Positions 7,276-37,965 of a stretch of 64,000 nt of DNA are shown here, one piece after another. Each line of letters starts with the position of its first letter. Position 1 is the stretch's first letter. The stretch lies in sequence record OR352942.1; one strand, 5' to 3'. This DNA comes from Escherichia phage AV112. The position numbers and the translations under genes are program-made. The notes beneath the pieces were generated by a model, which saw only the letters and a list, made by a program, of their open reading frames with translations, did not search any database and was not told where the DNA came from.

Positions 7276-7321
7276 TTTATTATCCAATGAGAGCATTATA
7301 CTCTGCTCTCAAGAGTTTGTA
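7276..7321 (-). promoter_or_regulatory. early promoter/stem-loop cassette, copy A of a 46-bp perfect direct repeat
   Basis: tttattatccaatgagagcattatactctgctctcaagagtttgta is identical to 37920-37965. Minus strand reads TTTACA-17 nt-TATAAT with inverted repeat GAGAGCA/TGCTCTC flanking the -10. Confidence 0.6.
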
Positions 7322-7326
7322 AATCG

Positions 7327-7539
7327 TTATCCGAACTTTTTAGCGCCTTTCCAGCCTTCGTACATAACTGCACAAGTCAGTAATACAGCGTGCTGGCATT
7401 CTTTGTATTTGTAAATCCAGAACCAGCGTAAAAAGTCTTCATCCTCAACACCGTTGAGTTTCATGTTGGCAAAGAATTCGGCACGTTCTTCACGAAGTTG
7501 CCATGACACAATATTTTCAGGATTCATTTTGTGTTCCAA
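7327..7539 (-). CDS. hypothetical protein
   Basis: 70-aa ORF. Confidence 0.35.
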   Translation of the reverse strand: MEHKMNPENIVSWQLREERAEFFANMKLNGVEDEDFLRWFWIYKYKECQHAVLLTCAVMYEGWKGAKKFG

Positions 7540-7751
7540 GCCCCGTTTTCGTCGATGAACTTAATCCAGTCATTTACAGACCATTTAGTTGTATCACCCT
7601 TTAGATTAACATTTAAAGTATATAATCCCTGCTTAAAAAGCATTCGTTTGATATTCATAATTTCCTCAACTGTAACGATAACATTCGTTAGCTTTACGTT
7701 TGGCTTCAGTATGAGAAGTATTATAATCATAATCTTCTTTACTGTAAACAT
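7524..7751 (-). CDS. hypothetical protein
   Basis: 75-aa ORF. Confidence 0.3.
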   Translation of the reverse strand: MFTVKKIMIIILLILKPNVKLTNVIVTVEEIMNIKRMLFKQGLYTLNVNLKGDTTKWSVNDWIKFIDENGAWNTK

Positions 7752-7959
7752 CTTTTTTCAACTTACGAACTTCTTTGCGGAGTTGTCGATTCATTTCGTT
7801 CTTGACTTCAGAATCAACGCCTTTCATACGTTTCCATTTATCCGAGCGGAAAATGTTTTCAACCATGTCTTTGTGGCTAACACCGTCAGGAGCTTTACGT
7901 TTACCAAAATAGTCGTAATCACGAACTTTCAAATCTTTACGACGATACGTTTTACCCAT
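7666..7959 (-). CDS. hypothetical basic protein (start uncertain)
   Basis: Lys/Arg-rich ORF; overlaps neighbours in the track. Confidence 0.3.
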   Translation of the reverse strand: MGKTYRRKDLKVRDYDYFGKRKAPDGVSHKDMVENIFRSDKWKRMKGVDSEVKNEMNRQLRKEVRKLKKDVYSKEDYDYNTSHTEAKRKANECYRYS

Positions 7960-7966
7960 AAGTACC

Positions 7967-8335
7967 TCAGAGGTTGATTGATACAATGCGTTTGATAAAA
8001 TTCACTTCACTTACTGAAAGGTCTTTAAGACCGATTGATTCTAAACGCTGAGTAAGCGTCAACATCGGGATATAGTCCCAATGTGTTTTAGACGTTTGAT
8101 AAGTACGGGCGCCATTAGCAATTTCAACGTTCAAATCAGAAATGGTAATGAATACCAGACGTTCGTTGTTTACATTAAGAGTTAGAACAACTTTCTTCGA
8201 ATTCAGACTAATCATTTTGTTTTCCTCTATAGTAGATGGTTTAATCTTAACACATCTATTGAGGATGTAAACTGTTTTATGAAAATATTTTCGATTTGAG
8301 AGGGGCACAAGGAGATAGTGAAGTGAAGATTCCAA
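7967..8335 (-). CDS. hypothetical protein
   Basis: 122-aa ORF. Confidence 0.4.
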   Translation of the reverse strand: MESSLHYLLVPLSNRKYFHKTVYILNRCVKIKPSTIEENKMISLNSKKVVLTLNVNNERLVFITISDLNVEIANGARTYQTSKTHWDYIPMLTLTQRLESIGLKDLSVSEVNFIKRIVSINL

Positions 8336-8380
8336 TGGATTATATTAGAAATGAGATAAAGAAGACCAGGCGGCACCTGG

Positions 8381-8704
8381 TCAATCTTCTATGATATCAG
8401 AGTCATATCCTAATGAAATCAAGGACTTTTTAAACTCTGCAATATTCTTTTGTTTCTTATCATTTAAAAATATGACAGGATAACGAATATTAAGTGAAGT
8501 GAATCCTGCACGTTTAGCAAGAGATACGATTAAAGGACGGTCATATTCAATCTTACCATTATTAGTGAGGACTTTATAAAATGTATAAGGAGCATTGAGC
8601 TCCTTTAAAAGTTTTGTAACAGTATAACATCCTGGACAACGTCCTACTTCTTCAGGGATGCCATAGATTTCAATCTTGTTCTTTAAGTTCGAGTTTTGTT
8701 CCAC
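8381..8704 (-). CDS. nrdH: NrdH-like glutaredoxin (likely GTG start)
   Basis: KIEIYGIPEEVGRCPGCYTV...GYDSDIIED with a CPGC redox motif. The track ORF extends upstream with no in-frame ATG near the conserved N-terminus; a GTG at 8702-8704 follows AAGGAA. Confidence 0.7.
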   Translation of the reverse strand: MEQNSNLKNKIEIYGIPEEVGRCPGCYTVTKLLKELNAPYTFYKVLTNNGKIEYDRPLIVSLAKRAGFTSLNIRYPVIFLNDKKQKNIAEFKKSLISLGYDSDIIED

Positions 8705-8987: not shown

Positions 8988-8989
8988 AA

Positions 8990-9229: not shown

Positions 9230-9319
9230 ACATTGATAAACACTAAACTATATTGCGAATAAAATTCTGGACCAAAACGAAAAATCATATCATTTATAGT
9301 ATCCATAGTGTAATTCAAT

Positions 9320-9790: not shown

Positions 9791-11604
9791 TGGTGTTTAA
9801 CCCTATGCATGATTTCTTTATTTTTGCCGAGATTAAATCCGCGTTCGTTCGGATTTCCAAGATAACCGCATGTTCTTCTTATTGTGTTCATCTTTTTAGG
9901 ATCAGTTTCTCCGCAAACTGAACAAACAAATCCGGTTTCAGTAGGAGTCATTTCATGAGTACTTCCACATGTAAAACATTTATCTACTGGCATATTAACA
10001 CCAAAATAATCTAAATGTTGTGCAGCATAATCCCATACAGCCTCAAGACCTTTTAGGTTATTTTTCATATCAGGAAGTTCAACATAAGAAATGTGACCAC
10101 CAGTCGCAATGAAATGATATGGCGCTTCACGAGAAATCTTTTCAAACGGAGTAATATTTTCTTCTACTGAAACATGGAAACTATTAGTGTACCAGCCTTT
10201 ATCAGTAACATCTTTTACACTTCCATATTTTTCTGTATCAAGTTTACAGAAGCGATAACAAAGGTTTTCAGCAGGAGTAGAATACAAGCTAAAAGCAAAA
10301 CCGGTTCTTTCAGTCCACTGCTTAAGACGAGCATTCATTTTAGTTAAAATTTCTTGCCCAATATCACGTCCGGCAAGAATATTCAATTCGTGAATACCAA
10401 TGTATCCTAAAGACACTGAACTTCTACCGTTTTTAAATAACTCAATTATATCGTCATCAGGTTTAAGACGAACCCCGAATGCACCTTCTTGGTAAAGAAT
10501 AGGAGCAACAGTAGCTTTAACTCCTTTTAAGGAACTAATTCTACACATCAAAGCTTCAAAACACAAATCCATTCGCTCATTGAACAATTCGATAAATTTC
10601 TGTTCATTGAACTGTGTTCCAATATAAGAATCTAACGCAATGCGAGGAAGATTCAGTGTTACAACACCGAGATTATTACGTCCATCAAGAATTTCATTAC
10701 CAGTCGAATCTTTCCATACGCTCAAGAAACTACGGCAACCCATTGGAGAAACAGGAATAGACGAACCAGTGATAGCTTTATTGTTCTTAACTGAAATAAT
10801 ATCAGGATACATTCTTTTGCTTGCGCATTCTAAAGCAAGCTGTTTAATATCATAGTTCGGGTCGTCTTTATAAAGATTAACACCCTCTTCAACGAACATA
10901 ACAAGTTTAGGGAAAATAGGAGTTATTCCATCACGACCAAGGCCTTTAATACGATTTTTCAGAATTGCTTTCTGAATCATTCGTTCAGTCCAGTCAGTTC
11001 CAGTACCAAATGTAATTGTTACAAAAGGCGTTTGTCCGTTTGAACTAAAGAGAGTATTTACTTCGTATTCATACGCTTGGAATGCATCATATACGTCTTT
11101 TTCTGTTTTAGATTGAGCATAATTCAACGCATCAGCGATTTGCCATTTTTCTGCATCTTCAATATGTTTTGCATAGGTGCGTTTAACATAAGGAGAAAGA
11201 ACTTTATCGACATTCGCAAATGTAGTTCCACCATACTGATGCGAAGCAACCTGTGCGGTAATTTGTGCCATAATTGCAGTAGCAACACCAATCGATTTAG
11301 GCGTTTCAATTTGAGCATTGCCTAATTTAAATCCATTCTCAAGCATTCCTTTTAAATCTACTAAACAGCAATTAGTAAAAGGCAATGATATACTGTAATC
11401 TAAATCATGAAAATGAATTAATCCAACATTATGTGCATTTACAATATGACTTGGAAGAATACGACAAGCGATATGTTTAGAAACAATACCGGCCATTAAA
11501 TCTCTTTTTGTTGGAAAGACACGAGAATCTTTGTTGGCGTTTTCGGTATTTAATTCTTTATCTTTATTTGAAATAAAATTTAAAACATCTTTCTCTAAAG
11601 ACAT
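9787..11604 (-). CDS. nrdD: anaerobic ribonucleoside-triphosphate reductase NrdD, uninterrupted
   Basis: 605 aa; C-terminal glycyl-radical motif RRTCGYLG and C-terminal Cys zinc ribbon; continuous ORF. Confidence 0.92.
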   Translation of the reverse strand: MSLEKDVLNFISNKDKELNTENANKDSRVFPTKRDLMAGIVSKHIACRILPSHIVNAHNVGLIHFHDLDYSISLPFTNCCLVDLKGMLENGFKLGNAQIETPKSIGVATAIMAQITAQVASHQYGGTTFANVDKVLSPYVKRTYAKHIEDAEKWQIADALNYAQSKTEKDVYDAFQAYEYEVNTLFSSNGQTPFVTITFGTGTDWTERMIQKAILKNRIKGLGRDGITPIFPKLVMFVEEGVNLYKDDPNYDIKQLALECASKRMYPDIISVKNNKAITGSSIPVSPMGCRSFLSVWKDSTGNEILDGRNNLGVVTLNLPRIALDSYIGTQFNEQKFIELFNERMDLCFEALMCRISSLKGVKATVAPILYQEGAFGVRLKPDDDIIELFKNGRSSVSLGYIGIHELNILAGRDIGQEILTKMNARLKQWTERTGFAFSLYSTPAENLCYRFCKLDTEKYGSVKDVTDKGWYTNSFHVSVEENITPFEKISREAPYHFIATGGHISYVELPDMKNNLKGLEAVWDYAAQHLDYFGVNMPVDKCFTCGSTHEMTPTETGFVCSVCGETDPKKMNTIRRTCGYLGNPNERGFNLGKNKEIMHRVKHQ

Positions 11605-12416
11605 AATTCTAATTTATCCTTTTGAAATTCTTCGTCTAAATATGGGTTCCAACCCATTTTAAACCTTTTGATGAAATTATCAATTCTAAATTTCGGTAAG
11701 TTTAAATCCGCAAAAATAGATGATTTACTTTTAAAATCTGGACCTAAATAATCATATAAAATTTCTGCGTATTTTAACCATAATATACAAGTACCAGATT
11801 TAATTGCGTTCGGAGTTTTCCAAGGTTTTACACCATACATCGGATTTCCACTTCCTTTATGCCTGATAGAAGATGAAATTCCAATTTTAATTTTAGCTTC
11901 CTTTGTATGCGAAAATCCACGATGCGGATTTTCTTTCCAGTATTTTTTAGAAGCTTCTGATATTTTCTTTCTGGCTAAATTAGTATGATGCTTTCCATAA
12001 AATCCATGATTTTTGCCTTTATTACGATTTCTTTTAATCATGGTTATTGATTGCTTTTCTCTAGTTTCTTTAGAAGGAGAAATACCATATGTCGTAAATT
12101 TGCCATCAGCATATGCTAAATTAAAATACTCTTTATTCCATACATCTTTTTCTATATTCTTTTGAAATTCAGCTTCAATGCTAGTTATTTGTTCATCTCC
12201 GACTAATTGAAAATATAATATTTCAACTTTCGGCGTTTCTTTCAATAAGGCTTTTTGAAATTCGGAAGATGACGAAGACGAATAATAAAATTTACCATTT
12301 TTATCAATAATATTCGTTCCATCAAAAGTGCAATTGGTTTTACTTCCAATGTAATAATATGGTGGGGTTTTAGCATTAATTCTATTAATAAATGATAGTT
12401 TATATACTACATTCAT
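11595..12416 (-). CDS. free-standing GIY-YIG homing endonuclease (Seg-like)
   Basis: 273 aa; N-terminal VVYKL...PYYYIGSK GIY-YIG-like motif; NUMOD3-like repeats HTNLARKKISEA and HTKEAKIKIGISS; sits between gene 49 and nrdD, stop overlapping the nrdD start. Confidence 0.65.
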   Translation of the reverse strand: MNVVYKLSFINRINAKTPPYYYIGSKTNCTFDGTNIIDKNGKFYYSSSSSSEFQKALLKETPKVEILYFQLVGDEQITSIEAEFQKNIEKDVWNKEYFNLAYADGKFTTYGISPSKETREKQSITMIKRNRNKGKNHGFYGKHHTNLARKKISEASKKYWKENPHRGFSHTKEAKIKIGISSSIRHKGSGNPMYGVKPWKTPNAIKSGTCILWLKYAEILYDYLGPDFKSKSSIFADLNLPKFRIDNFIKRFKMGWNPYLDEEFQKDKLELCL

Positions 12417-13647: not shown

Positions 13648-13983
13648 TTAACCCCGGAGTTTATTGAGCTCTTCATAATCAATCCAGGATTCTAGCCCTG
13701 ACGGCAGGTCACATTCAATGTTCCACAGAAGCTCTTCGATGGCTTGTAGGCGATTATATTCTTCAACAGTAATAGTAACCATTGTTTCAGGCTTTTTAAC
13801 CATCATGTCATTCATCAGAATGTACAGGTCTTCACAAACAGCCGGGTCGTCCCATGTCCATATTTCAGCATCTCGAACTAATGAAGTCGGAATCGAATTT
13901 AAAACTTCAAGCTTAGTAGGAGCGTCAGGGCCGAGAAGAGTTGCTACAAATTTATACGCTCTGGCGAAATCAATATCATTCAT
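13648..13983 (-). CDS. hypothetical acidic protein
   Basis: 111-aa ORF. Confidence 0.4.
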   Translation of the reverse strand: MNDIDFARAYKFVATLLGPDAPTKLEVLNSIPTSLVRDAEIWTWDDPAVCEDLYILMNDMMVKKPETMVTITVEEYNRLQAIEELLWNIECDLPSGLESWIDYEELNKLRG

Positions 13984-14243
13984 TTAAAATATTCTCGCAG
14001 TTGGTCGAATCCACCAATGTGACTTCCGTCAGGAGCAAACACTTGAGGCATAGTCAATCCGACTTGTGATTCACGTCCAAGCTTAACCAGAAGCTCAGCA
14101 ATTTTCTCATCATCAAAAACACCTTTTTCTGGCATAACATTAATGAATTCGAATGGCTGTTTCTTAACAGTCAGTAATCGTTTCGCATTATCGCAATAAA
14201 TGCATTTATGAATAGTAGAGTCATACCCGTACACTTTAAACAT
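13980..14243 (-). CDS. nrdC: NrdC thioredoxin/glutaredoxin
   Basis: From the internal Met: MFKVYGYDSTIHKCIYCDNAKRLL...GGFDQLREYFK, CIYC redox motif; near-identical to T4 NrdC as recalled. Confidence 0.9.
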   Translation of the reverse strand: MFKVYGYDSTIHKCIYCDNAKRLLTVKKQPFEFINVMPEKGVFDDEKIAELLVKLGRESQVGLTMPQVFAPDGSHIGGFDQLREYFK

Positions 14244-14649
14244 TATTTTTCCTTTCATCGATTAAATATGCAACGCCAAATACAATACATGTAATAAAAC
14301 CTGTGATACAGATAGAAACCAACAACACTGTACCAAAGAACCAAATCAAGTTATCTTTAGTAGTTTGTTTGATATCCATCTCACGAATTTCTATAGCTAT
14401 TGTATCACCTTTATTCAGAAGCGTATAAAACGACGGTGATACATGCCTGTCAAAAACTCGACCTTGTTCATCTTTATAAACTGCAATAAATTCCAGTTTA
14501 GAATATTTTCCTGTAGATTGACCTGAAATTAATTCCACTACCTCCACAGGAATTACTTTAGTTTCCATGTAAGTATTCTGGCTGTTCCAAATGAATGGAA
14601 TGATGGCAAAAACTAAAGCTACAATAAAACAACGAAGGCTATATCTCAT
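14236..14649 (-). CDS. membrane protein
   Basis: 137 aa; hydrophobic N- and C-terminal segments. Confidence 0.45.
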   Translation of the reverse strand: MRYSLRCFIVALVFAIIPFIWNSQNTYMETKVIPVEVVELISGQSTGKYSKLEFIAVYKDEQGRVFDRHVSPSFYTLLNKGDTIAIEIREMDIKQTTKDNLIWFFGTVLLVSICITGFITCIVFGVAYLIDERKNNV

Positions 14650-14954
14650 TATAATGTTCTCTCAAATTTGTGGAAGCATTTACGGCATTTCAATTTCAAG
14701 TTATCAGTGGTCCAGTTAACCAGTTGGACTTGGATAGTTCCACATTCCGGGCATGGATGTTTTGCTGCCGATTTGGCAGCATTTTCACGTCGTTCAACCA
14801 TTTTCATTATTTCGTTCCATGCCGGAGGAACGAACTCTTCTTCACCGTGGATTTTATCTCGCTGAACAAATTCAATCTTTGAACTATCGTCAATAAACTT
14901 AACCAAGCTGTGATTAGTGCTCATGTCAATATCCTCTAAAAGACGTAGTTTCAT
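14649..14954 (-). CDS. zinc-ribbon protein
   Basis: 101 aa; CPECG ... CRKC paired-Cys motifs. Confidence 0.45.
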   Translation of the reverse strand: MKLRLLEDIDMSTNHSLVKFIDDSSKIEFVQRDKIHGEEEFVPPAWNEIMKMVERRENAAKSAAKHPCPECGTIQVQLVNWTTDNLKLKCRKCFHKFERTL

Positions 14955-15904
14955 TATAAAACCTCAATGGCATTTCGTAAACCATCCGCTTTTGCATTCA
15001 GAGCTTTTAATGATTTAGTTTGTTCTGCAATCTGGGCTTCAACTTCTTTCAGACGAGATTTGAGGTATTCGCGTTCTTCTCTTAAGTTATCAACTTTTTC
15101 TGCTTTAGGCTCTTTAATAGGCTTAGGTTTATACGTATTAGGGTTCTTCAGTTTAATTAGAATGCGTGAACTGTACAGCATTGAACCATTATCTTCGGTT
15201 TCGTCATACATTTCCACTACGTCCATCATCTCCACCATCGTGCAGAGTTTATAAGACAACGAACGAATAGTTTTGTTGTGCTTATTAATTTCTTTAGAGT
15301 TCATGGTGCCTAGATTACGCGAGTAGTAATAAGGAACCTGGATATCAACTGACAATGATGCGTTACCATTGCCAGTTGGTTTGAATACTGCAGTAACCCA
15401 ATCTTTAACATGAACTTTATTTGTACGGCCATCACCGCCAGTGAATAATTTACGAGAATGTTTAAAAAGCATATTCACTTGGTTATTGAATTCACAAGCA
15501 AATTTATCAGCAAATTTAGTTTCAGGAATGGTAGATAACCAATCAGCTAAATGAGTCTTTTTAACATCGTTAATAATAGTAAATTCAACCAAATCAGTTT
15601 TAGATGTCACAGATTTAATAAAGCTCGGCTTCATAAAGTTTTTAATGTTATCGCGAGCTACAGTAGAAGATAATAAACGAGAACGTTTGAACCATTGAAG
15701 CAGTGTCCCTAATGAATGAGAATACGCATTCTGAGTATCTTTACAGATATGATTTTCTTGGCCTGTGTATGTACCAAAATCGCGAAGAATACCGCTTACT
15801 ACAACTCGGTGTGGAACATCAAATCCTAATGAACCAGAAGCACGTTGGGCATGAACGTTAGCGATAAGACCTGCAAAATAATCAATGTAATGTGAACGTG
15901 TCAT
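14954..15904 (-). CDS. hypothetical early protein with C-terminal coiled coil
   Basis: 316 aa; heptad-like tail EEREYLKSRLKEVEAQIAEQTKSLKALNAKADGLRNAIEVL. Confidence 0.5.
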   Translation of the reverse strand: MTRSHYIDYFAGLIANVHAQRASGSLGFDVPHRVVVSGILRDFGTYTGQENHICKDTQNAYSHSLGTLLQWFKRSRLLSSTVARDNIKNFMKPSFIKSVTSKTDLVEFTIINDVKKTHLADWLSTIPETKFADKFACEFNNQVNMLFKHSRKLFTGGDGRTNKVHVKDWVTAVFKPTGNGNASLSVDIQVPYYYSRNLGTMNSKEINKHNKTIRSLSYKLCTMVEMMDVVEMYDETEDNGSMLYSSRILIKLKNPNTYKPKPIKEPKAEKVDNLREEREYLKSRLKEVEAQIAEQTKSLKALNAKADGLRNAIEVL

Positions 15905-15932
15905 AATATTTTCCTCTCGTTAAGATAGAAAG

Positions 15933-15961
15933 ATTATACTCCAACCGTCCTTGGTTGTAAA
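15933..15961 (-). promoter_or_regulatory. sigma70-like early promoter with spacer stem-loop
   Basis: Minus strand TTTACA-17 nt-TATAAT; spacer contains CAACC/GGTTG inverted repeat. Confidence 0.55.
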
Positions 15962-15966
15962 CTGAT

Positions 15967-16899
15967 TTATGATTTTAATGCATTCATTGCGTTAAAAAGT
16001 TTAGAGTACTGCAACTGGAGCTTGGTAACTACTTGTTGAGCATCACGAAGCTTAGCTTGTGCTTTGTCAAGTTCAACAGACAGTTGATCCACAGTGCCTT
16101 TGATTTGATTATAATAGTAATCTTCGGCAGGAAGAAGGCCGTTAGAGATTTCCAGTTTAGTCGTCGGTGTGCCGTTAAACATAACAGGTTGTGCTGAAGC
16201 TGCATTAATCTTACCGATAGTCGGGGCGACAATAATTGACGCTTCGAACGTTGCATTTTCCTTTTTAAGATTTTGATAGTATTCAGAGTCTTTGTGCCAC
16301 CATGGCGCAGGAACCTTTTTACCAATAGATACACGAGCCTGGATAGCGATATGGCCCTTATTCTTGATAACGTCGATAATATTAAGCTCACGAGAATAAA
16401 TTGCTTTAATCTGGTGAATATTATCACCTAACACTTCCAACGCTTGGTGGAATACACGAGCAACGTTATCATTCTTAGGTTTATACGTAAGAGTGAACTC
16501 GTTCTCACTGATAACCATGATTTCTAACTTATCGTAAGTATATTTCAAATGTTTCATGTTAATTGCTTGAGGACGAATACGAGAAGCAATGGCCATCAGA
16601 TTGTTAAGGTTATTCCGGAACTGCTTAGCGAAATATTGTCCTTCACCACCAATACAAAAATTACGAAGTTTCTGTTTGGCTAATAAACGGCTGAACTCAC
16701 CGTTTTTAATGAACTCTTTAACGGGTGTGTTAGTAACGCATTCAAATTGAGTAAACTTACGAGAAGTAATCCCATAATATGAACAGATTTCCTCAATCTC
16801 TTCAGGAGTCTTTACAGGCATACGGATAGGATTAGGACCTGGGGTATATGCGTTCGAGGTAAATTCTTTGATAAGTTCTCTACGTGTAATAGAAGCCAT
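15967..16899 (-). CDS. hypothetical early protein with C-terminal coiled coil
   Basis: 310 aa; C-terminal LSVELDKAQAKLRDAQQVVTKLQLQYSKLFNAMNALKS. Confidence 0.5.
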   Translation of the reverse strand: MASITRRELIKEFTSNAYTPGPNPIRMPVKTPEEIEEICSYYGITSRKFTQFECVTNTPVKEFIKNGEFSRLLAKQKLRNFCIGGEGQYFAKQFRNNLNNLMAIASRIRPQAINMKHLKYTYDKLEIMVISENEFTLTYKPKNDNVARVFHQALEVLGDNIHQIKAIYSRELNIIDVIKNKGHIAIQARVSIGKKVPAPWWHKDSEYYQNLKKENATFEASIIVAPTIGKINAASAQPVMFNGTPTTKLEISNGLLPAEDYYYNQIKGTVDQLSVELDKAQAKLRDAQQVVTKLQLQYSKLFNAMNALKS

Positions 16900-16925
16900 T
16901 TTATATTCCTCATGTTGAAAAATTT

Positions 16926-16954
16926 ATTATACTCCAACCATCCTTGGTTGTACA
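16926..16954 (-). promoter_or_regulatory. sigma70-like early promoter, same cassette type as 15933-15961
   Basis: Minus strand TGTACA-17 nt-TATAAT; spacer shares ccaaccatccttggttg with the neighbouring cassette. Confidence 0.5.
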
Positions 16955-17950
16955 TCATTCCTTAAGAAGTTTTACTACTTGAATAAGATTAGCTCGTTCT
17001 GTTTTATTTTTACCGTTTAAGCCTGCTAATCGTGAGATTTCATCGTCAGTCTGTTGAATAGTTACATTAAGTTCGTTAATCAAAGCTTCAAAGTATTTGA
17101 TTTGCTCAGCATGTTTTGATTCAAATTTCTGAACCGGAATAACGTCTTGGTTTAGTTCATCAATAAGGTCTTTAAGAGCATCTTCTTGATTGATATCATA
17201 TTCAACTTCTTTTATTTCTTCAACGAGCTCGTCTTTATATCTAACGTCTTTTAGTCCTGGTGCTGGTCCTGAAATCTCTTCTTTAAGAGTACAAACATAT
17301 CCAATACGGTATCCAATGCCGTCTCGCTTGATATCAACTTCGTCAATAAATCCACAATGTTTAAGACCAGAGCCGATTAAGTCAAAATATCCTTGACGAC
17401 GTCCTTCAAACGTTACACGAACTACTAAGACAGTTTTACCTGCAACCTTTTGAAGCTCACATTTATAAAAGTTTGTTGAACCTGAATAACGTGGATGAGT
17501 TTTAAAGTTCATCTGACGATCTAGGCCCATTTGTAAGCGTGCTGATACGGCCATAAAACGTGTTTGGTTCTCGTTAAGATGAGCAACAATCCATTTCAAA
17601 GGCATTTTACACTGTTCACGACCGAACAAATCAGTACGTCCTAGATTACGCAGGATGTTGTTAGAGTTAATCATCGACAGAACATTAAGTTTATTCAGCG
17701 CGCTGAAGATTCCATCAGCCATTGATTTTCCGTAACCTTTACACGCTTTAATAAGCGCTCGCGGTAGATTAGCATAGATTTCAGACGGCATATGAAAATC
17801 AAATTTACTAGTCAGTAATTGATGAACTTGGATAGCAATTTGCTCATAATTAAGTGCTCTGCGATCATTATGATCTTTAAACCACACTTTAATCTGTGAA
17901 GCACATAAACCGTTAATTTCATGTTTTACCGCATCAGATGTAATGCTCAT
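16955..17950 (-). CDS. hypothetical early protein with C-terminal coiled coil
   Basis: 331 aa; acidic coiled-coil tail. Confidence 0.5.
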   Translation of the reverse strand: MSITSDAVKHEINGLCASQIKVWFKDHNDRRALNYEQIAIQVHQLLTSKFDFHMPSEIYANLPRALIKACKGYGKSMADGIFSALNKLNVLSMINSNNILRNLGRTDLFGREQCKMPLKWIVAHLNENQTRFMAVSARLQMGLDRQMNFKTHPRYSGSTNFYKCELQKVAGKTVLVVRVTFEGRRQGYFDLIGSGLKHCGFIDEVDIKRDGIGYRIGYVCTLKEEISGPAPGLKDVRYKDELVEEIKEVEYDINQEDALKDLIDELNQDVIPVQKFESKHAEQIKYFEALINELNVTIQQTDDEISRLAGLNGKNKTERANLIQVVKLLKE

Positions 17951-18012
17951 ATCTATTTCCTCAGATTGAATTGGAACTCAAAACCATTATAACCCGTCCT
18001 TGGGTAAAGCGT

Positions 18013-18540
18013 TTATGCGTGAACCGTCTTTAAACGTTCTTCAAATTTCCGAAGAGTACTAATACGTTCTGCTTTCTGTTTTGTATAGTTTGCAATACGT
18101 TCTGAAGTGAGAGCGTATCGTTCGTTTACTGTTTCTTTCATGAAGTCAGGGATTTCACGAGAAGCTTTAATTTCATCAAACTTATCGAGTACTGCCTGGT
18201 CTTCAGCGATTAAATTTTCGTACATCTCGATATCTTTCTTGATGAAGTCGATATCTTCCTGGGTTACTTTGGATAAACGAGATGCTTTATCCTTTTTGTA
18301 TTGCTCGTTAGTTTCACGAGACCAGAATAATGTACGTTTTTTGTTAGTGTTTTTGTAGACTTCCACAATTCCAACTGAATCGATGATAGCAATCCAATTC
18401 CAGCGAGATTTGAAAATCTGACCTCCGTCCACGGTAATCTCGTTACCATAAGCAACATCATTAAAGAACTTGCTTTGTGCTTCAGATTTAAATTTACCGT
18501 CGTTATAATTTACCAGGTTGAAAATATCTTTAGCGTTCAT
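18013..18540 (-). CDS. hypothetical protein
   Basis: 175-aa ORF. Confidence 0.45.
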   Translation of the reverse strand: MNAKDIFNLVNYNDGKFKSEAQSKFFNDVAYGNEITVDGGQIFKSRWNWIAIIDSVGIVEVYKNTNKKRTLFWSRETNEQYKKDKASRLSKVTQEDIDFIKKDIEMYENLIAEDQAVLDKFDEIKASREIPDFMKETVNERYALTSERIANYTKQKAERISTLRKFEERLKTVHA

Positions 18541-18564
18541 GTTTTACCTCCAGTAGTTGATAGG

Positions 18565-18597
18565 TCTATAATAACACAACCATAGACCTTGTAAACA
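18565..18597 (-). promoter_or_regulatory. early promoter with inverted repeat around the -10
   Basis: Minus strand GTTTACA...TGTGTTATTATAG; plus-strand taggtctat...atagacct inverted repeat. Confidence 0.5.
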
Positions 18598-18598
18598 A

Positions 18599-18886
18599 CT
18601 AAAAGAAACTTTTTTCGGTATTTTTTCCACTGAACCAAACCGACTTCGGGACTTTCTGTAATTTTTCGGATTTAAGTTTCTCTTCCTGTTCTTTCTTATA
18701 TGCATCCTTGTCGTACTGGAACAATTCTAAGGCATTCTTTTGTAGACGGTCTAAGGTAATTAAGGCTTTAGTTTTTCCTTTCAAGGAAGAGTCCTGGCGA
18801 ACCTCCTCGCTATATTGCATCGTAGAACTAACCATACGATGAGCATACAGTTCGACTGCGGCTTTAATTTTTTGCATAAAATCCAT
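18599..18886 (-). CDS. hypothetical protein
   Basis: 95-aa ORF. Confidence 0.4.
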   Translation of the reverse strand: MDFMQKIKAAVELYAHRMVSSTMQYSEEVRQDSSLKGKTKALITLDRLQKNALELFQYDKDAYKKEQEEKLKSEKLQKVPKSVWFSGKNTEKSFF

Positions 18887-19024
18887 AACATATCCTCTTT
18901 GATTTGTACACCATTATTTTTAAATATTTCTATGCCCTCAGTAGGTTCCTGGTGTCCTTCTTTGAGGTAAGCCATATGATTATTCATCTTTATGGCTTTT
19001 GTTACCTCAGAACTTCCTATAAGC

Positions 19025-20026
19025 TTATTTCAGTAAAGTAACTTCAGAGATTTCCTCCCAACCATCTTTATCAGTTGAAATAAAATCTGCTACATAAAGA
19101 GCCGTACGTAATGATACATTGCGAAGACGAGATACATTAGCCTTCATCCAGGACAATGCTTTATACGTTTCTGCATCTGTCAGACCACGTTTCTGCATCA
19201 TGTCAGTAGATAATATTACATCTTCAACTCGAACCATAATCTCTTCATTAGAGTGTACTCCAAGGTCGAGATACACTGAACGAGATACTAAAGCTTGAAG
19301 GTGTGGGGCAAGTTTCGAACCGCGTTCTAACTCTTTATCGATATCAACGTTTGTAATGAAAACGATAGTACCTTCAAACTCAAATTCTTTATCAATACCC
19401 TTATCATCGAGATAAGATGACGCAGTGCTCCAACAAACTTTGCGTTTATCTCCAGTATCTAATGCTGCTTTAAGAAGGTTCAAGATGTCCATATCTGAGA
19501 ATACGTCAACGTCGTCGATTAAGAGAACGCTGTCTGCATCACGGTTGAGCCAAAGTTGTTCGTAAAGGCCAATACCGGAGATTTTACCATTAATGCTTTT
19601 GTATTTGATGAAACCATTATCATTAGCGTTATTAAGTGCTTTATCCAGAGAATACGTCTTACCAATACCGGCTGCACCTGAAATAATGAGTGAACGAATT
19701 TTGCCATCGATAATGCCATTCGTCATCATGTTCATTACTTTAAAGCGTTTGTTGATACGAGTTTTCATATCTTCAGTGCTTTCAACAACTGCAACTGGTG
19801 ACGTCTCAACTCCTTCCATTACGATGTCTGATTTGAAGACCCATACTCCACGTTCAGACCCATCAATCATAACGAAAATTTTACCATCACCTAAGTGGGA
19901 ACATTCAGGATTAAGCTTTGCTGGGAACCATGTCTTTGTGGCAACATAAGAACCAGAGATTTCGTTATTACGATAAATACCTTTTTTGATTTGAACGTTG
20001 AACATTTTATTCTCCAATTTACTCAT
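19025..20026 (-). CDS. P-loop NTPase (AAA-like ATPase)
   Basis: 333 aa; Walker A ISGAAGIGKTYS and Walker B VLLIDDVD. Confidence 0.6.
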   Translation of the reverse strand: MSKLENKMFNVQIKKGIYRNNEISGSYVATKTWFPAKLNPECSHLGDGKIFVMIDGSERGVWVFKSDIVMEGVETSPVAVVESTEDMKTRINKRFKVMNMMTNGIIDGKIRSLIISGAAGIGKTYSLDKALNNANDNGFIKYKSINGKISGIGLYEQLWLNRDADSVLLIDDVDVFSDMDILNLLKAALDTGDKRKVCWSTASSYLDDKGIDKEFEFEGTIVFITNVDIDKELERGSKLAPHLQALVSRSVYLDLGVHSNEEIMVRVEDVILSTDMMQKRGLTDAETYKALSWMKANVSRLRNVSLRTALYVADFISTDKDGWEEISEVTLLK

Positions 20027-20039
20027 TTCGTTTCGATAG

Positions 20040-20072
20040 GTCTATAATAACATGTTTAAAGCAAAAGTAAAC
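20040..20072 (-). promoter_or_regulatory. early promoter (GTTTAC, 17-nt spacer, extended -10 TGT-TATTAT)
   Basis: RC reads GTTTAC-TTTTGCTTTAAACATGT-TATTAT, about 40 nt upstream of the ATPase start. Confidence 0.55.
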
Positions 20073-20074
20073 AA

Positions 20075-20293
20075 TTATTTGCGACGAGATTTTTTGGTAA
20101 GAGGTTGAAAGAACACTGCTTTACCTGCTGGGGTTAAGGTGACTCGTAATGCATTACCGATTCCTAAGGATGCTTTAACTAGACCTTTAGCTTTCAGTTC
20201 ACCGAATGCTTGACGTTGGTCTGCATCACGAGTGTTAACCATAAGACCTTTATCACCTGCTTCACGAATCATTTCTAACATTTTGGTTTTCAT
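20075..20293 (-). CDS. hypothetical small basic protein (start moved to internal Met)
   Basis: MKTKMLEMIREAGDKG... preceded by GAGGAG; the longer track ORF would run through the promoter. Confidence 0.45.
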   Translation of the reverse strand: MKTKMLEMIREAGDKGLMVNTRDADQRQAFGELKAKGLVKASLGIGNALRVTLTPAGKAVFFQPLTKKSRRK

Positions 20294-20379
20294 TTTGTTC
20301 TCCTCTTGTTTTGATAGGTCTATAATAACATATCCTAAAAGCATGTACACTACTTTTTAAAAATATTTTAACCCCCTAA

Positions 20380-20395
20380 AGGGACCCGAAGGTCC
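20380..20395 (-). terminator. hairpin GGGACC-UUCG-GGUCCC just after the stop of 20402-20683
   Basis: Plus strand gggaccc-gaag-gtcccc; minus-strand UUCG tetraloop hairpin followed by UUUAGGGGG rather than a clean U-run. Confidence 0.35.
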
Positions 20396-20401
20396 CCACA
20401 T

Positions 20402-20683
20402 TTACTTATCGCACTTAGCAACATAATTAGGCATATCACAGAATACGGAGCGAGTAACTACTCGGCCCTTTGACCATGCTTCAGTTGCTTGTCCGGCTGT
20501 GCTATTAATATAGCTTGATCTAATGTTCTCAATACCCTGAGAATGTGATGCATTTACCGAACCATTAGAAGACCCAGAAGACTGGTTACCACCAGCTCCT
20601 GCGCTACCGCTGGCTGCACCCGTGGTAGCACCAACAGAGAATGCCATCATTACTGCGAATAAACCAATTACTATTTTTTTCAT
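20402..20683 (-). CDS. small secreted Gly/Ser-rich protein
   Basis: 93 aa; N-terminal signal-peptide-like MKKIVIGLFAVMMAFSVGA, then a Gly/Ser/Asn-rich low-complexity stretch. Confidence 0.5.
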   Translation of the reverse strand: MKKIVIGLFAVMMAFSVGATTGAASGSAGAGGNQSSGSSNGSVNASHSQGIENIRSSYINSTAGQATEAWSKGRVVTRSVFCDMPNYVAKCDK

Positions 20684-20714
20684 ATTTACCTCAAGTTAAT
20701 GGTTATTTATCTAC

Positions 20715-21704
20715 TTATTTATAGTAAGAATTATGATTTTCGAGATAGACTTGTTCAAGGAAGTCATCCCAGAAACTCATATCTACTTTTTGTTGCATAC
20801 CGTTCTTGGCAGCTTGTTCTGATGCATGTTCAACTTGGTCAACGATATCTTCTAGGAATTCTTGTACAGTTTTAAACGTATGTTTACCAAGCTTAACATC
20901 GAGAATAAATGGAGCATCCTGAAGTGGGTAAACCAGGTCGCCGGTTTTATAAATTTCTAATAGTTGAAGTCCACCACGACATGCATGACTCAATGCTTTC
21001 CAGTCAATACCTTCGTTAGCTTCTGCCTTACGAGCACGTTCACCATAGTTCTCTTCCAGTTTAACCAGGATGGCATTGAACTCTTTATTGGTTAACGTGT
21101 CTTGGAATTTACGGTCTAACAGATTATAGAATGTTTGCTTACCTGTTTTCTCGTTTTCAGTTTCAACCCACGAAGCAAATTCACCTACAGGCAGAACATT
21201 CTTCATATGTGATAAACGAATTACTGCACCATTATCAAAGTATTGTCCCCATTCATTAGAACGTTTAAGGGCTTGACGAAGAACAGCCAGTCGAGAACCC
21301 TTGACACCGTATTTAGAAGCTTGTTTACGGACATACCCTAAATAAGATTTCATGTTAGTGGTATAGAAACGAGACCTGTTATCTTGAATATACTTCCATA
21401 CATCAGGCAAATCGGATTTAACTACTAAACTTGGTGGAGTGTGAAGCATATCTAATGCGACGGTTTCGCCATCTGCAGCTAGTTTAAAGAAATATTTGAG
21501 ACTATACAACTCATGGTCCACGTCGTCTTTTGTGTTCTTAGAAGATGTGTTATTTGTGTTCTTGCTCATATGTTCTTTAACGTTACCGGTCAAGATATCA
21601 CGAGCATGAGGGACATAAATTTCTTTAAAATCGACGTCAGATTCAGGAGTAGACGTTCCATAAAGGTGGCTACCAAAGTAGCCTTTCATAATTGTTTTCA
21701 TCAT
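20715..21704 (-). CDS. Pol-beta-superfamily minimal nucleotidyltransferase
   Basis: 329 aa; N-terminal GSHLYGTSTPESDVDF fits the hG[GS]-x(9-13)-D-x-[DE] nucleotidyltransferase signature. Confidence 0.55.
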   Translation of the reverse strand: MMKTIMKGYFGSHLYGTSTPESDVDFKEIYVPHARDILTGNVKEHMSKNTNNTSSKNTKDDVDHELYSLKYFFKLAADGETVALDMLHTPPSLVVKSDLPDVWKYIQDNRSRFYTTNMKSYLGYVRKQASKYGVKGSRLAVLRQALKRSNEWGQYFDNGAVIRLSHMKNVLPVGEFASWVETENEKTGKQTFYNLLDRKFQDTLTNKEFNAILVKLEENYGERARKAEANEGIDWKALSHACRGGLQLLEIYKTGDLVYPLQDAPFILDVKLGKHTFKTVQEFLEDIVDQVEHASEQAAKNGMQQKVDMSFWDDFLEQVYLENHNSYYK

Positions 21705-22895: not shown

Positions 22896-23020
22896 TTTAC
22901 CATACTCGTTTCAATAAGATTCACTATGCCGTTTACCATGTTATAAGTAAACATCGGATAATTGTATTGTACTACAACATAAGCGATAAGCAAAAGTTTC
23001 ATTTTGTTCTCCATTTGTTT

Positions 23021-23060
23021 TGGTAGGATTACTATATCATAGTCCTACCAAGACGTAAAC
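23021..23060 (-). promoter_or_regulatory. early promoter with inverted repeat (gtagga...tcctac)
   Basis: RC reads GTTTAC-N18-TATAGT; the -10 is flanked by a 6-bp inverted repeat. Confidence 0.45.
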
Positions 23061-23293: not shown

Positions 23294-23492
23294 ACATTTG
23301 TAATTCGGTGTGGGCTTCGGCCATCTTTTTCATAGCTTTGTTAATGTCGATGTCTCCATCTTCGCATCCATGAGCATTTTCCCAATCAGATACCGCATTA
23401 GCGTACTCTTCAATCAAAAACATTAACTTAGAAATTTTTTCTTTACGTGTCATAACGTTCTCCTCTAGTAAGTAAAGACTACTATAACACAA
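23274..23492 (-). CDS. hypothetical protein
   Basis: 72-aa ORF. Confidence 0.4.
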   Translation of the reverse strand: MCYSSLYLLEENVMTRKEKISKLMFLIEEYANAVSDWENAHGCEDGDIDINKAMKKMAEAHTELQMYVNEIM

Positions 23493-23509
23493 CCTGAGGA
23501 GAAGTAAAC
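23477..23509 (-). promoter_or_regulatory. early promoter GTTTAC-17 nt-TATAGT
   Basis: RC of gactactataacacaacctgaggagaagtaaac. Confidence 0.5.
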
Positions 23510-23519
23510 TGCTAAACGC

Positions 23520-23547
23520 AAAAAAGCCCCAACCATAAGGAAGGGGC
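23520..23547 (-). terminator. rho-independent terminator, copy 1 of a conserved GCCCC...GGGGC hairpin
   Basis: Plus strand aaaaaagcccc-aaccataaggaa-ggggc; minus-strand hairpin followed by UUUUUU, directly after the rI stop. Confidence 0.6.
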
Positions 23548-33797: not shown

Positions 33798-33826
33798 ATT
33801 ATTCTCCTCATGTTTTAATAGGACTA

Positions 33827-33854
33827 CTATAACATAGTCCTATCATGTTGTAAA
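33827..33854 (-). promoter_or_regulatory. early promoter/stem-loop cassette (palindrome ataggactactataacatagtcctat)
   Basis: Minus strand TTTACA-17 nt-TATAGT with the -10 inside a 9-bp inverted repeat; near-identical copies at 35112-35150 and 41876-41915. Confidence 0.55.
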
Positions 33855-33867
33855 CAGTTTTGTGAAG

Positions 33868-34824: not shown

Positions 34825-34852
34825 AATATTTTCCTCGGATTAATTCATTAAC

Positions 34853-35104: not shown

Positions 35105-35111
35105 TTAATTT

Positions 35112-35150
35112 GATAGGACTACTATAACATAGCCCTATCTTGTTGTAAAC
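35112..35150 (-). promoter_or_regulatory. early promoter/stem-loop cassette (copy)
   Basis: gataggactactataacatagccctatcttgttgtaaac; RC TTTACA-17 nt-TATAGT. Confidence 0.55.
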
Positions 35151-35154
35151 TGTT

Positions 35155-35352: not shown

Positions 35353-35361
35353 GTAGTTTCC

Positions 35362-35634: not shown

Positions 35635-35643
35635 AATGATTCC

Positions 35644-35949
35644 TTAGCACAACGCAGAAGACGAAACCCAAGCACCTTCAGTAATAACGTAACCATTACC
35701 TTCACGCTTAACATCGCCACCATTATTTTCAATTTCATCTTTCATCCACTGGGATACGATTTCACCCTTAGGATAATAAGTACGACCGCTACCATAATCA
35801 CCTACAGAAAATGATACGGCGTATTGGTCTGCGATCTTTGTTGCTTCTTCTTCGATACGTTCAGCTTGATTCAGAAGTTTATAAATTGCATCTGAAGCGG
35901 ATTTGGCATCATTAAACTCTGGTACTTTAATTTCAATAATCTTACTCAT
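35644..35949 (-). CDS. small protein, C-terminal W-V-S-S-S-A-L-C tail family, member 3
   Basis: 101 aa ending ...ITEGAWVSSSALC. Confidence 0.45.
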   Translation of the reverse strand: MSKIIEIKVPEFNDAKSASDAIYKLLNQAERIEEEATKIADQYAVSFSVGDYGSGRTYYPKGEIVSQWMKDEIENNGGDVKREGNGYVITEGAWVSSSALC

Positions 35950-36305
35950 TTTCTACATTCCTTAATAAAGTTTTCGATTGTTTCATTTTCACGTCTAGCT
36001 AGGAGTTCATTATAACTAATCATTTGAGAAGCGTAAACCTTTTTATTTTTCTTGTTATGGTTTATAAAATCGTAGTAAAAATAGACTACAGTACAAAATG
36101 ATGCGATGGATGCAAAGGCTTGGGTATACCGTAAGTCCTGCCATTGGTCTGTGAATCCACCAGTGTTCCCTATAAATCCTAACACAACGCCGTCAATAAG
36201 AAATCCAACTAATCCAAAGGCAAATCCCATGCCAATACTCATAATAAAAATTAGAATGTTCTCACCAAGAGAAGGCCATACGGTTAAGAGTTGAGGCTTT
36301 TGCAT
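35946..36305 (-). CDS. membrane protein with C-terminal xFIKECR tail
   Basis: 119 aa; hydrophobic core; ends ...ENETIENFIKECRK. Confidence 0.5.
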   Translation of the reverse strand: MQKPQLLTVWPSLGENILIFIMSIGMGFAFGLVGFLIDGVVLGFIGNTGGFTDQWQDLRYTQAFASIASFCTVVYFYYDFINHNKKNKKVYASQMISYNELLARRENETIENFIKECRK

Positions 36306-36709
36306 CTTATTTCCTTAACGAATTCCATAGCTTCTTCATATTCGTACTTTTTAACAGCTTCATCATACTGAGCTTGGGCTTTTGCGCACTGAACTTTCCA
36401 TTCTCTTAATCGGGCTCTATAATGACGTCCTTGGTGCCAATATCCTACCCAATTAATAGGCATTAATAAAAACGGTACAATAAGTGGTGCGACGAACATT
36501 AATGAAAATGCTGCATCAGACGATATAACTTCACTAGAATCTAAAACAGCTCCTATAATCGTAAAGATTAAAAATGCTAAAGCTAAAATAGGGCCAAATA
36601 GTACTTCGTTTGGGATTAATTTACGCTTGTATTCATACGCCCAGGGCTTAATTGGCATGTATAGGGTTGGCTTTGACATATTCTCTACATTCCATAATAA
36701 ATTGCTCAA
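36284..36709 (-). CDS. membrane protein with related C-terminal tail (EFVKEIRCK)
   Basis: 141 aa; hydrophobic segments; ends ...EEAMEFVKEIRCKSLNS; start probably an internal Met. Confidence 0.45.
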   Translation of the reverse strand: MSNLLWNVENMSKPTLYMPIKPWAYEYKRKLIPNEVLFGPILALAFLIFTIIGAVLDSSEVISSDAAFSLMFVAPLIVPFLLMPINWVGYWHQGRHYRARLREWKVQCAKAQAQYDEAVKKYEYEEAMEFVKEIRCKSLNS

Positions 36710-37265
36710 GGATTAAATTGTTAGTGAAATTAGGACTAACAACCATGGTTTCATAAAGCGCATCAATAGCACTTAAAGCATCAACTCTTTTAAGCAAAGG
36801 CTTGCCTTCATACATAGTTTCAGAATCGACGATTAACGTAAAGTAATATTTTTTATTATTGACCAGAACTTCTGTATCAATATAAAACATGTTAGATCTT
36901 AAAAGCTTATCTCTAAAACCATAATAATCTTCAGAGCGTTCGCTGATATATTCCAATTCAGTGTTTAAACAACAAACAGACCACGTAGGAGCAACGAAAT
37001 CAGTGAATCTAATATCATGGTCTGCAACTAGTTTAGCAATAGCTCCGATATCATGAATCATAATACCTGGGGCTAATAAAGATTTTCGGTTATTTGCATA
37101 TTCAGTTGTCTCATAAGAAGACGACCAGTACCATTTACGTCCAGTTGCAACATATCGTAATGAATCAACTAAAGACGTAGGTGGATTTACCTTATTTCGG
37201 AACTCTTCGAACATTGAGTCAATATCATTATTTTGGTTTCGCATGTTAACTCCTTTATTATCCAA
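36648..37265 (-). CDS. soluble protein with xFIMECR motif near the C-terminus
   Basis: 205 aa; ...NNLILEQFIMECREYVKANPIHAN. Confidence 0.45.
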   Translation of the reverse strand: MDNKGVNMRNQNNDIDSMFEEFRNKVNPPTSLVDSLRYVATGRKWYWSSSYETTEYANNRKSLLAPGIMIHDIGAIAKLVADHDIRFTDFVAPTWSVCCLNTELEYISERSEDYYGFRDKLLRSNMFYIDTEVLVNNKKYYFTLIVDSETMYEGKPLLKRVDALSAIDALYETMVVSPNFTNNLILEQFIMECREYVKANPIHAN

Positions 37266-37293
37266 AAGGAGGACCGGAGTCCTCCGTATTATT

Positions 37294-37887
37294 TTATTTC
37301 AAAGAGTTAATATATTCTTGTACATCAGCAGAAGTGGTTTCGACACCAGCTGGAGTGCCATTGAACGTTTCAACACGAGTCAGAGTGTCTTCGATATCAA
37401 CCTTAGTCAGTGCAGCGATTTCAATTACATCGTCAGCCGTAGAGATACCAAGGGCATTGGCTGCTCGAGTTTCACGAATGTATTCGAGTTTGATTGCCAG
37501 GTTCTGACGAGCATCGTCAAGTTCAACCACCTTACGAGCAATTTCAATTCGCATAGCAGCGTACCCGTCAGCTTTTGTATTAAGTTGTTCGGCGGTTCGA
37601 CGATACAGAAGACCAAGCTTAGCATGCATGGTAACATCTTGTCCTTCAGCCAGGAGCTTACGAATTTCAAGTTCCTTAGAAGCGGCTTGCTTATTCTTTT
37701 CATTAACAAGTTCGCGAATACGTTTTTCTTCATTAATAGATTTAACAGAAGCCGTTTTTAGTTCTTTGATTTGGGTAATCAACTTATCTGCGGCTGCGTT
37801 ATACTGTTCTTCGACAGTCAGATTTTTAGCCATAGCAGTACCCAGTTTAGTGCGGATGAATTCAACAAGTTTCTTCAGTGTGTTCAT
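37294..37887 (-). CDS. coiled-coil protein (possibly PspA/IM30-like)
   Basis: About 197 aa from MNTLKKL; long predicted helices; the PspA-like call rests on composition only. Confidence 0.4.
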
Positions 37888-37919
37888 ATTATTACCTTTC
37901 AATTGGTGGTTTATTATCC

Positions 37920-37965
37920 AATGAGAGCATTATACTCTGCTCTCAAGAGTTTGTACACTTATTTG
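37920..37965 (-). promoter_or_regulatory. early promoter/stem-loop cassette, copy B of the 46-bp perfect direct repeat
   Basis: Identical to 7276-7321. Confidence 0.6.

Follow-up and report, generated by a model that had tools for sequence, protein, structure and literature searches.

A 46-bp repeat in an RB69-like phage is probably a conserved early-promoter cassette with a stem-loop over its -10 box

We analyzed a stretch of 64,000 nucleotides from Escherichia phage AV112 (record OR352942.1; hereafter, the window) in which one 46-bp sequence occurs twice. The window is 100% identical to positions 103943-167942 of phage AV113 (OR352943.1), an RB69-like Mosigvirus of the Straboviridae, and the coordinates marked below as record positions are those of AV113. 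We conclude that the two 46-mers are probably paralogous copies of one conserved early-promoter cassette, belonging to the subclass of promoter-early stem-loop (PeSL) elements in which the stem-loop overlaps the -10 box. On this reading, host RNA polymerase would start about 7 nt after the -10 box, and given that start the cassette's own transcript would be free of the stem. The hairpin would be present only in RNA read through from upstream promoters, where it would most likely attenuate or pause the read-through or protect the 3' end of the upstream cistron, and so insulate neighboring gene modules. The identity of the copies would come mainly from common descent and purifying selection on nearly every position, with occasional conversion possible. 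The short shared sequence would serve as a substrate for swapping adjacent gene modules, not for a productive 30-kb deletion.

The 46-mer (TTTATTATCCAATGAGAGCATTATACTCTGCTCTCAAGAGTTTGTA) has exactly two matches in the window, both with 0 mismatches, at 7276-7321 (copy 1) and 37910-37955 (copy 2). The copies are in direct orientation with a spacing of 30,634 bp, and we describe them on the minus strand, which carries nearly all genes of the studied region. A preliminary description of this DNA had reported a perfect 46-bp repeat at 30.6-kb spacing, which stands, and had placed the second copy at 37920-37965, which is 10 nt too high. It had also judged an identity of this length unlikely by chance; in agreement, none of 100 dinucleotide-preserving shuffles gave a matching repeat. 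No third copy was found in the whole window, either with up to 3 mismatches or by searching with the repeat halves. In other phages, the identical 46-mer is present at 351 places in 160 independent records. A sequencing or assembly artefact, the danger pointed out in the preliminary description, was ruled out, since the same 46-mer recurs in 160 independently sequenced records. Taken together with the shuffles, this makes the probability that the copies are a chance match or an assembly artefact negligible.

Both copies read on the minus strand as near-consensus promoter sequences of the sigma-70 or T4-early type. By sequence match in a promoter scan, copy 1 is TTTACA-N17-TATAAT (11/12 to consensus) and copy 2 is TGTACA-N17-TATAAT (10/12), hence the TTTACA hexamer originally assigned to both is right for copy 1 and wrong for copy 2. 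The base triplet before TATAAT is GAG, without a TGn extended -10 element. Predicted from spacing only, the transcription starts would lie on the minus strand near 7288 (copy 1) and 37922 (copy 2). The inverted repeat previously noticed around the -10 box is real and was measured as an 8-bp stem with an 8-nt loop (TGAGAGCA/GAGTATAA/TGCTCTCA). The first five bases of the -10 box lie in the loop and its last T opens the 3' arm, which spans -7 to approximately +1. The predicted energy of the hairpin alone is -11.8 kcal/mol (z ~ -3.5 for the fold in context), and the Shine-Dalgarno sequences (SDs) at 7264-7269 (copy 1) and 37895-37899 (copy 2) are unpaired in centroid folds. A terminator scan gave no match at copy 1 or copy 2, because no T run follows the stem; the sequence after the 3' arm is UUGGAUAAUAAA, without a U run. 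The cassette sequence is annotated as a host-type promoter in one record.

We found relatives of the cassette, at 82-86% identity (blastn, word size 11), in T4, VR5 (Dhakavirus), TH41 (Gaprivervirus), Klebsiella phage Marfa and Kosakonia phage 305. The T4 homolog is located between motB.1 and motB, that of Kosakonia phage 305 upstream of ndd, and across Dhakavirus, Gaprivervirus, Kanagawavirus and Marfavirus the relatives occur at different genes. Three parts are constant across genera: the -35 region GTTTACAAACTC, the loop GAGTATAAT and the leader TGGATAATAAA. The arms differ yet pair, as TGGGACCA/TGGTCCCG in T4 and TGAGGAC/GTCCTCA in Marfa. In a hand-collected set of 14 sequences, 94.6% of cells are paired, double-sided changes are seen at 6 of the 8 pairs, and the score was reached by 0 of 500 shuffles. 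To keep out selection bias, we scanned IMG/VR with the skeleton TACAAACTC-N9-GAGTATAAT, leaving the arms free, which gave 38 sites with 22 distinct sequences (a scan with the exact core returned 3 loci only, all of them the ndd copy). In the skeleton set 96.6% of cells are paired, changes on both sides occur in 26 cells versus 8.6 expected, and the covariation score is 0.522 versus 0.247 (0/500 shuffles). Sliding the partner columns lowers pairing to 36-56%. These comparisons indicate selection on arm pairing in at least five genera, because the arms covary against a constant -35 region, loop and leader.

The two strands of the skeleton set differ in wobble pairs: the sense strand has 16 G.U pairs and 96.6% paired cells, and the reverse complement has 2 G.U pairs and 88.6%. 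This asymmetry argues that the structure is selected in a single strand of sense polarity. Most simply, that strand would be read-through RNA from upstream promoters, since a transcript started at the cassette itself should, judging by the spacing, begin near the end of the 3' arm.

The cassette is repeated elsewhere in the AV113 genome. A third copy upstream of ndd (record 65916-65961) is identical from the -35 box through the 3' arm. The fourth, in the pseT region (record ~38224-38256), is diverged, and its arms AGGAGCA/TGCTCCT show two compensatory pair changes relative to the 46-mer copies. We further collected 36 candidate early promoters in AV113, defined by a T[TG]TAC-type -35 box, a spacer of 16-18 nt, a TAnnnT -10 box and a downstream SD and start codon. 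A perfect stem of at least 7 bp encloses the -10 box in 14 of the 36, as compared with 2.1 when flanks were shuffled and 3.3 when downstream flanks were swapped between promoters (maxima of 7 and 8 in 200 trials). Such stems are thus a general feature of AV113 early promoters. Their arm sequences vary from promoter to promoter, and they fall into two groups, one with short loops like those of the 46-mer copies and one with long loops in which the Shine-Dalgarno sequence is the 3' arm.

Several observations concern these wider promoter groups. Long-loop stems occur at window 23458-23503 (minus strand) and, outside the window, at record positions ~88843, ~75934 and ~89276; the 5' arm (TTCTCC...) directly follows the -35 box, the 3' arm is the SD GGAGAA, and the stems reach 13-14 bp. 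They would hide the ribosome-binding site in read-through RNA, as at T4 e, soc and 49, but with early promoters. Short-loop stems enclosing the -10 box and having other arms are found on the minus strand at 33818-33843, 35112-35139, 23020-23051 and 18562-18589 (arms ATAGGACTA, GATAGGGCTA with one G.U, TTGGTAGGA and AGGTCTAT), and a downstream motif (A/T)GTCCTATCAAA is common to many short-loop early promoters. A further promoter family, also present in several copies, is marked by the spacer ACCAAGGA(T/C)GGTTGGAG before TATAAT and contains an internal CCAA...TTGG repeat. Its sites are at window ~15938, ~16931 and ~38241 (minus strand) and record ~76882 and ~77439, and one member is the cassette that flanks the variable 82-aa ORF discussed below.

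Some considerations weigh against the view of the 46-mers as promoter cassettes with a selected RNA hairpin. We infer promoter activity, the start site and the effect of the hairpin on read-through RNA from the sequence. The sequences that show covariation are related, and cell counts overstate the number of independent events. When sense and antisense are compared in the single genome of AV113, there are 4 G.U versus 2 A.C pairs, and the difference in minimum free energy has a P-value of 0.09, a comparison that the cross-genome set decided. G.T is the least destabilising mismatch in DNA, and the hairpin may therefore form in the non-template DNA strand. Classical intrinsic termination, one conceivable action of the hairpin, is unlikely, because it lacks a U-tract and fails the terminator scan. 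Finally, the state of the terminal stem pair shared by the two copies hints either that conversion between them has contributed to their identity or that they have a shared lineage history.

PeSLs were defined as intergenic elements that combine a strong sigma-70-like promoter with a stem-loop. They form five positional subclasses, and in phi1/RB49 a stem-loop overlapping the -10 box is among the commonest layouts (Arbiol et al. 2010, PMC2839356). In the same work one PeSL stem-loop showed attenuator activity and mini-circles were detected between neighboring PeSLs 0.4-1.4 kb apart; the name 'RB69' does not occur in its text (PMC2839356). PeSLs were subsequently extended to T4/PST and KVP40/nt-1, with stems just upstream of the promoter in PST/T4 (Comeau et al. 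2014, PMC4122927). The apparent conflict between that placement and ours is resolved because a stem over the -10 box is one of the main subclasses in the 2010 paper. The AV113 cassette resembles PeSLs in being an intergenic early promoter plus stem-loop, with the preceding stop codon on one side and the following SD and ATG on the other. It also resembles them in forming a repeated family among small accessory genes (3 near-identical copies and 1 diverged copy in AV113), in having the stem-loop over the -10 box, and in sitting at the breakpoints of insertions, deletions and replacements among close relatives. The preliminary description had already seen promoter-early stem-loops here, and both the structure and the comparison with relatives support it. 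There are also differences from PeSLs as described in RB49/phi1, T4/PST and KVP40/nt-1. The host genome is an RB69-like Mosigvirus, the stems are not polyG/polyC, and coding sequence rather than a distinct AT-rich spacer lies upstream of the -35 box. In contrast to the PST/T4 stems located upstream of the promoter, those of AV113 and T4 motB enclose the -10 box. Published PeSL circles joined neighbors 0.4-1.4 kb apart, at a frequency of about 1 in 10^5 virions, whereas the AV113 copies are 30.6 kb apart.

Two further systems of T4 are close to the cassette. T4 early promoters have a GTTTAC-type -35 box and 'additional regions of consensus' of unknown meaning (Hinton 2010, PMC2988021). The cassette shares with them the GTTTAC-type -35, the 17-bp spacer, a perfect TATAAT and the position before early genes, and its homolog stands upstream of T4 motB. 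It departs from the consensus of that review (PMC2988021) in having no TGn extended -10, and arms covarying around the -10 box are not part of that description. At T4 e, soc, 49 and I-TevI, the promoter lies within the sequence of the 5' strand of an RNA helix, so that read-through transcripts form the helix and local ones do not (Uzan and Miller 2010, PMC3014915). The AV113 promoter likewise sits inside the 5' strand of a predicted RNA helix. In the T4 cases, however, the SD/AUG is hidden in the 3' strand and the promoter inside the helix is a late one, whereas the SD of the AV113 cassette is ~20-27 nt downstream of the stem and unpaired; other AV113 early promoters (23458-23503) do pair the spacer with the SD.

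What the stem-loop does can be read in several ways. It might simply be the upstream gene's ordinary rho-independent terminator, with an incidental overlap of the promoter that follows. In the SA79RD record this very hairpin carries a rho-independent terminator annotation (TransTermHP/WebGeSTer), and, like such terminators, it is a stable hairpin soon after a stop codon, ~10-15 nt past it. Unlike them, it has no U-tract and is negative in the terminator scan at both copies; the cassettes of other genera likewise lack a U-tract, and in the true terminators of the same window (repeat family D11) a T run comes after a GC-rich stem. We consider an ordinary terminator quite improbable. The inverted repeat over the -10 box also has the layout of a classical operator, at which a dimeric DNA-binding regulator would shut off the promoters. 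A protein site would keep its sequence and not its pairing, whereas here the arm sequences vary between orthologs and paralogs with complementarity kept, which leaves this explanation hardly any weight. Yet another view puts the action of the inverted repeat in DNA, where a hairpin or cruciform would modulate promoter opening or be a target of a recombination or resolution enzyme such as endonuclease VII, making the cassette an active recombination hotspot capable of long-range deletion or circle formation. Indel junctions do fall at the cassettes, and tolerance of G.T mismatches in DNA hairpins means that the asymmetry could reflect the non-template strand. Mini-circles between nearby PeSLs were detected by Arbiol et al., who speculated on a stem-binding recombination protein (2010, PMC2839356). 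The junctions, however, are in the -35 box and not in the stem, a symmetric double-stranded function would not predict a 16-to-2 wobble asymmetry, and none of 162 records contains a long-range recombinant junction. Moreover, cruciforms do not form readily from an 8-bp stem with an 8-nt loop. Overall, a role at the DNA level appears unlikely to us. Within the reading of the cassette as a promoter with an RNA hairpin, we tentatively raise a more specific idea, which we regard as doubtful. The hairpin with the -10 box in its loop may be a conserved U-tract-free device of T4-like (Tevenvirinae and allied) phages that stops or marks read-through with the promoter's own -10 box, e.g. by sigma-dependent pausing on non-template TATAAT. 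Promoter and insulator would then fit in ~35 nt, and the same constraint would keep the copies similar enough to serve as portable recombination linkers.

We turn next to the cause of the identity. Two alleles of copy 1 occur. In AV113, AV109, phi25-307 and NHEP11 copy 1 is identical to copy 2, and in 77 records including RB69, SA79RD and phiE142 it has the form (c/t)GAGAGA-tgagtataat-TCTCTCG. This RB69-type allele has 4-5 differences and yet pairs, with a C-G pair replaced by A-T and the outer T-A by C-G, with T.G intermediates. Copy 1 of JN02 is intermediate, having only one of the RB69-type changes. Copy 2 has private single-base variants in JN02 (a sense-strand G.U) and in SA79RD, RB69 and phiE142 (a terminal U.G). 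One explanation is recent gene conversion or recombinational copying, i.e. concerted evolution, instead of selection at each position. It agrees with the existence of one copy 1 allele identical to copy 2, another differing at 4-5 positions and the JN02 intermediate between them. It agrees also with the terminal stem pair, whose state matches between copies 1 and 2 in all five genomes read: the 3' arm ends with A in AV113 and JN02 and with G in RB69, SA79RD and phiE142. On the other hand, the private single-base variants of copy 1 and copy 2 in JN02 are not found in the other copy, and the JN02 intermediate fits stepwise compensatory evolution (G to T, then C to A) as well. The cassettes of other genera, 82-86% identical at other loci, vary only at covarying arm positions, and constraint alone can suffice. 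Conversion as the main cause is a possibility we take seriously without favoring it. Common descent with purifying selection would be sufficient for the identity of the copies, because nearly every position of the 46-mer appears constrained (promoter boxes, paired arms and the leader shared across genera). A recent event is not required, since the cassette belongs to an old family that is conserved by selection and extends to T4 and other genera.

Gene content beside both copies varies among Mosigviruses, with breakpoints at the cassettes. At the copy 1 locus, RB69, phi25-307, NHEP11, SA79RD, JN02 and phiE142 have an extra gene, ORF075c, between 55.3 and 55.2. A cassette built in the same way belongs to this ORF, with TGTACA, the 12-bp stem ACGATAGGAAGA/TCTTCCTATCGT and a loop that contains the -10 box. 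ORF075c is missing in AV113 and AV109, and homology stops at window 7317-7321, inside the -35 box. The order at the copy 2 locus in SA79RD is 145c, frd.3, the 82-aa ORF and e.6. AV113 is without 145c and frd.3, RB69 and PTE-Eco05 are without the 82-aa ORF, and the replacement of frd.3 and 145c versus the 82-aa ORF begins at about window 37956. The junctions are within the shared promoter heads TGTACAAAC(GCCAAGG...) or TGTACAAAC(TCTTGAG...), i.e. the -35 boxes. The proposed tie between such cassettes and modular gene shuffling is therefore upheld by the relatives compared, since the indel and replacement breakpoints of both loci fall at cassettes.

The preliminary description also predicted that recombination between the two copies would delete or circularise about 30 kb. 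The direct-repeat geometry suits the formation of a deletion or circle. Nonetheless, the prediction finds no support, and none of the 162 matching records contains a deletion or circle junction. We queried the two chimeric junctions (the 55.2-promoter-frd.3 side and the e.6-promoter-55.3 side) at a required query coverage of at least 80%, and 0 of 162 records cover them, their halves matching separately, although assembled genomes would miss rare events in a lysate. The interval between the copies holds endonuclease VII (gene 49), nrdD/G, rI, tk, regB, denV, the lysozyme gene e and ~60 more genes. Gene 49 is essential in T4. A 30-kb deletion should not propagate alone, because the interval includes this gene, essential by T4 genetics. 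We examined the 121-kb record of phiE142 as a candidate natural deletion between the copies and rejected it, as it keeps nrdD, 49, tk, e, e.6 and the whole interval. As a separate observation from the same interval, a homing-endonuclease gene (window 11595-12416, minus strand) separates nrdD from gene 49 in AV113 and is absent there in RB69 and phiE142.

The positions of the copies, their parts and the flanking genes are collected in the table. Between the upstream stop codon and the -35 hexamer there are 3 nt at copy 1 and 1 nt at copy 2. On the other side, 6-10 nt separate the end of the repeat from the Shine-Dalgarno sequence, so that the repeat covers essentially the whole intergenic region, with 18-35 nt between the end of the stem and the downstream SD and ATG. 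Coding sequence, the 3' end of the preceding ORF, makes up the 20-22 nt upstream (A+T ~59% at copy 1 and ~75% at copy 2 by hand count, in a low-GC genome), and a separate spacer is absent. The downstream ORFs had been called unrelated, and BLASTP indeed gives no alignment between the 55.2 and e.6 proteins. Of their proposed coordinates, 37294-37887 is right, while the start of 6925-7260 has to be moved to 7257, the ATG supported by an SD. Two annotated CDS starts in AV113 are inside -10 boxes, at 7296 (the ATG of TATAATG, copy 1) and at 38240 (the ATG of TATGAT, 82-aa ORF). Compared with the SD-supported starts at 7257 and 38207, they are probably 13 and 11 codons too long.

Table. Coordinates, in the window, of the two repeat copies, their promoter and hairpin elements and the adjoining genes
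Feature	Position	Strand	Basis or remark
Copy 1 of the 46-bp repeat, promoter cassette of gene 55.2	7276..7321	-	exact match
Copy 1 -35 hexamer TTTACA	7318..7323	-	promoter scan, spacer 17; first two bases outside the repeat
Copy 1 -10 hexamer TATAAT, within the hairpin loop	7295..7300	-	
Copy 1 stem 5' arm, sense TGAGAGCA	7304..7311	-	inside the -35/-10 spacer
Copy 1 stem 3' arm, sense TGCTCTCA	7288..7295	-	last T of the -10 box to ~+1
Copy 2 of the 46-bp repeat, promoter cassette of gene e.6	37910..37955	-	exact match
Copy 2 -35 hexamer TGTACA	37952..37957	-	promoter scan, 10/12, spacer 17
Copy 2 -10 hexamer TATAAT, within the hairpin loop	37929..37934	-	
Copy 2 stem 5' arm, sense TGAGAGCA	37938..37945	-	
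Copy 2 stem 3' arm, sense TGCTCTCA	37922..37929	-	
Gene 55.2 homolog (DUF7570)	6925..7257	-	SD GAGGAA at 7264-7269
Gene 55.3 homolog (DUF5490), upstream of copy 1	7327..7527	-	
Gene e.6 homolog, 197 aa, downstream of copy 2	37294..37887	-	
Variable 82-aa ORF upstream of copy 2, between two promoter cassettes	37959..38207	-	frd.3 + ORF145c instead in RB69, PTE-Eco05
Adjoining cassette TGTACA-N17-TATGAT, driving the 82-aa ORF	38236..38264	-	other junction of the module replacement

Other repeats and genes of the window were noted in passing. A three-copy repeat (23512-23547, 38850-38885 and 39393-39428) reads GCCCCTTCC...GGTTGGGGC on the minus strand and is followed by a T run; these sites look like canonical intrinsic terminators, in contrast to the promoter hairpins without a U-tract. 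Six small ORFs on the minus strand, with starts at 42181, 41854, 39356, 31338, 30254 and 29634, begin with MK(T/S)(Y/F)xEF(I/L)xE, e.g. MKTYKEFIAE. We take this N-terminus to resemble the capsid-targeting leader of T4 internal head proteins. This explains repeat families D3-D5, in which a conserved N-terminus is joined with an SD and a promoter. About 10 consecutive nrdC.x-type ORFs (window ~13980-21700; AV113 record 117922-125643) are all named 'thioredoxin', a name that RB69 gives to nrdC only, which is probably a case of name propagation.

The cassette is no new kind of system. With it, the PeSL concept reaches the RB69-like Mosigviruses, and one PeSL subfamily acquires a precise anatomy, consisting of the -35 region GTTTACAAACTC, covarying 8-bp arms, the loop GAGTATAAT and the leader TGGATAATAAA. 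The same cassette is kept from Mosigvirus to T4 (at motB), Dhakavirus, Gaprivervirus, Kanagawavirus and Marfavirus. Covariation together with the strand-specific wobble bias provides comparative evidence for a stem selected as a sense-strand structure. For annotation, the cassette flags CDS starts placed inside -10 boxes, and repeats of this sort are to be expected in these genomes rather than taken for misassemblies. Moreover, the proposed role of the hairpin as an attenuator or insulator becomes testable with a few mutants.

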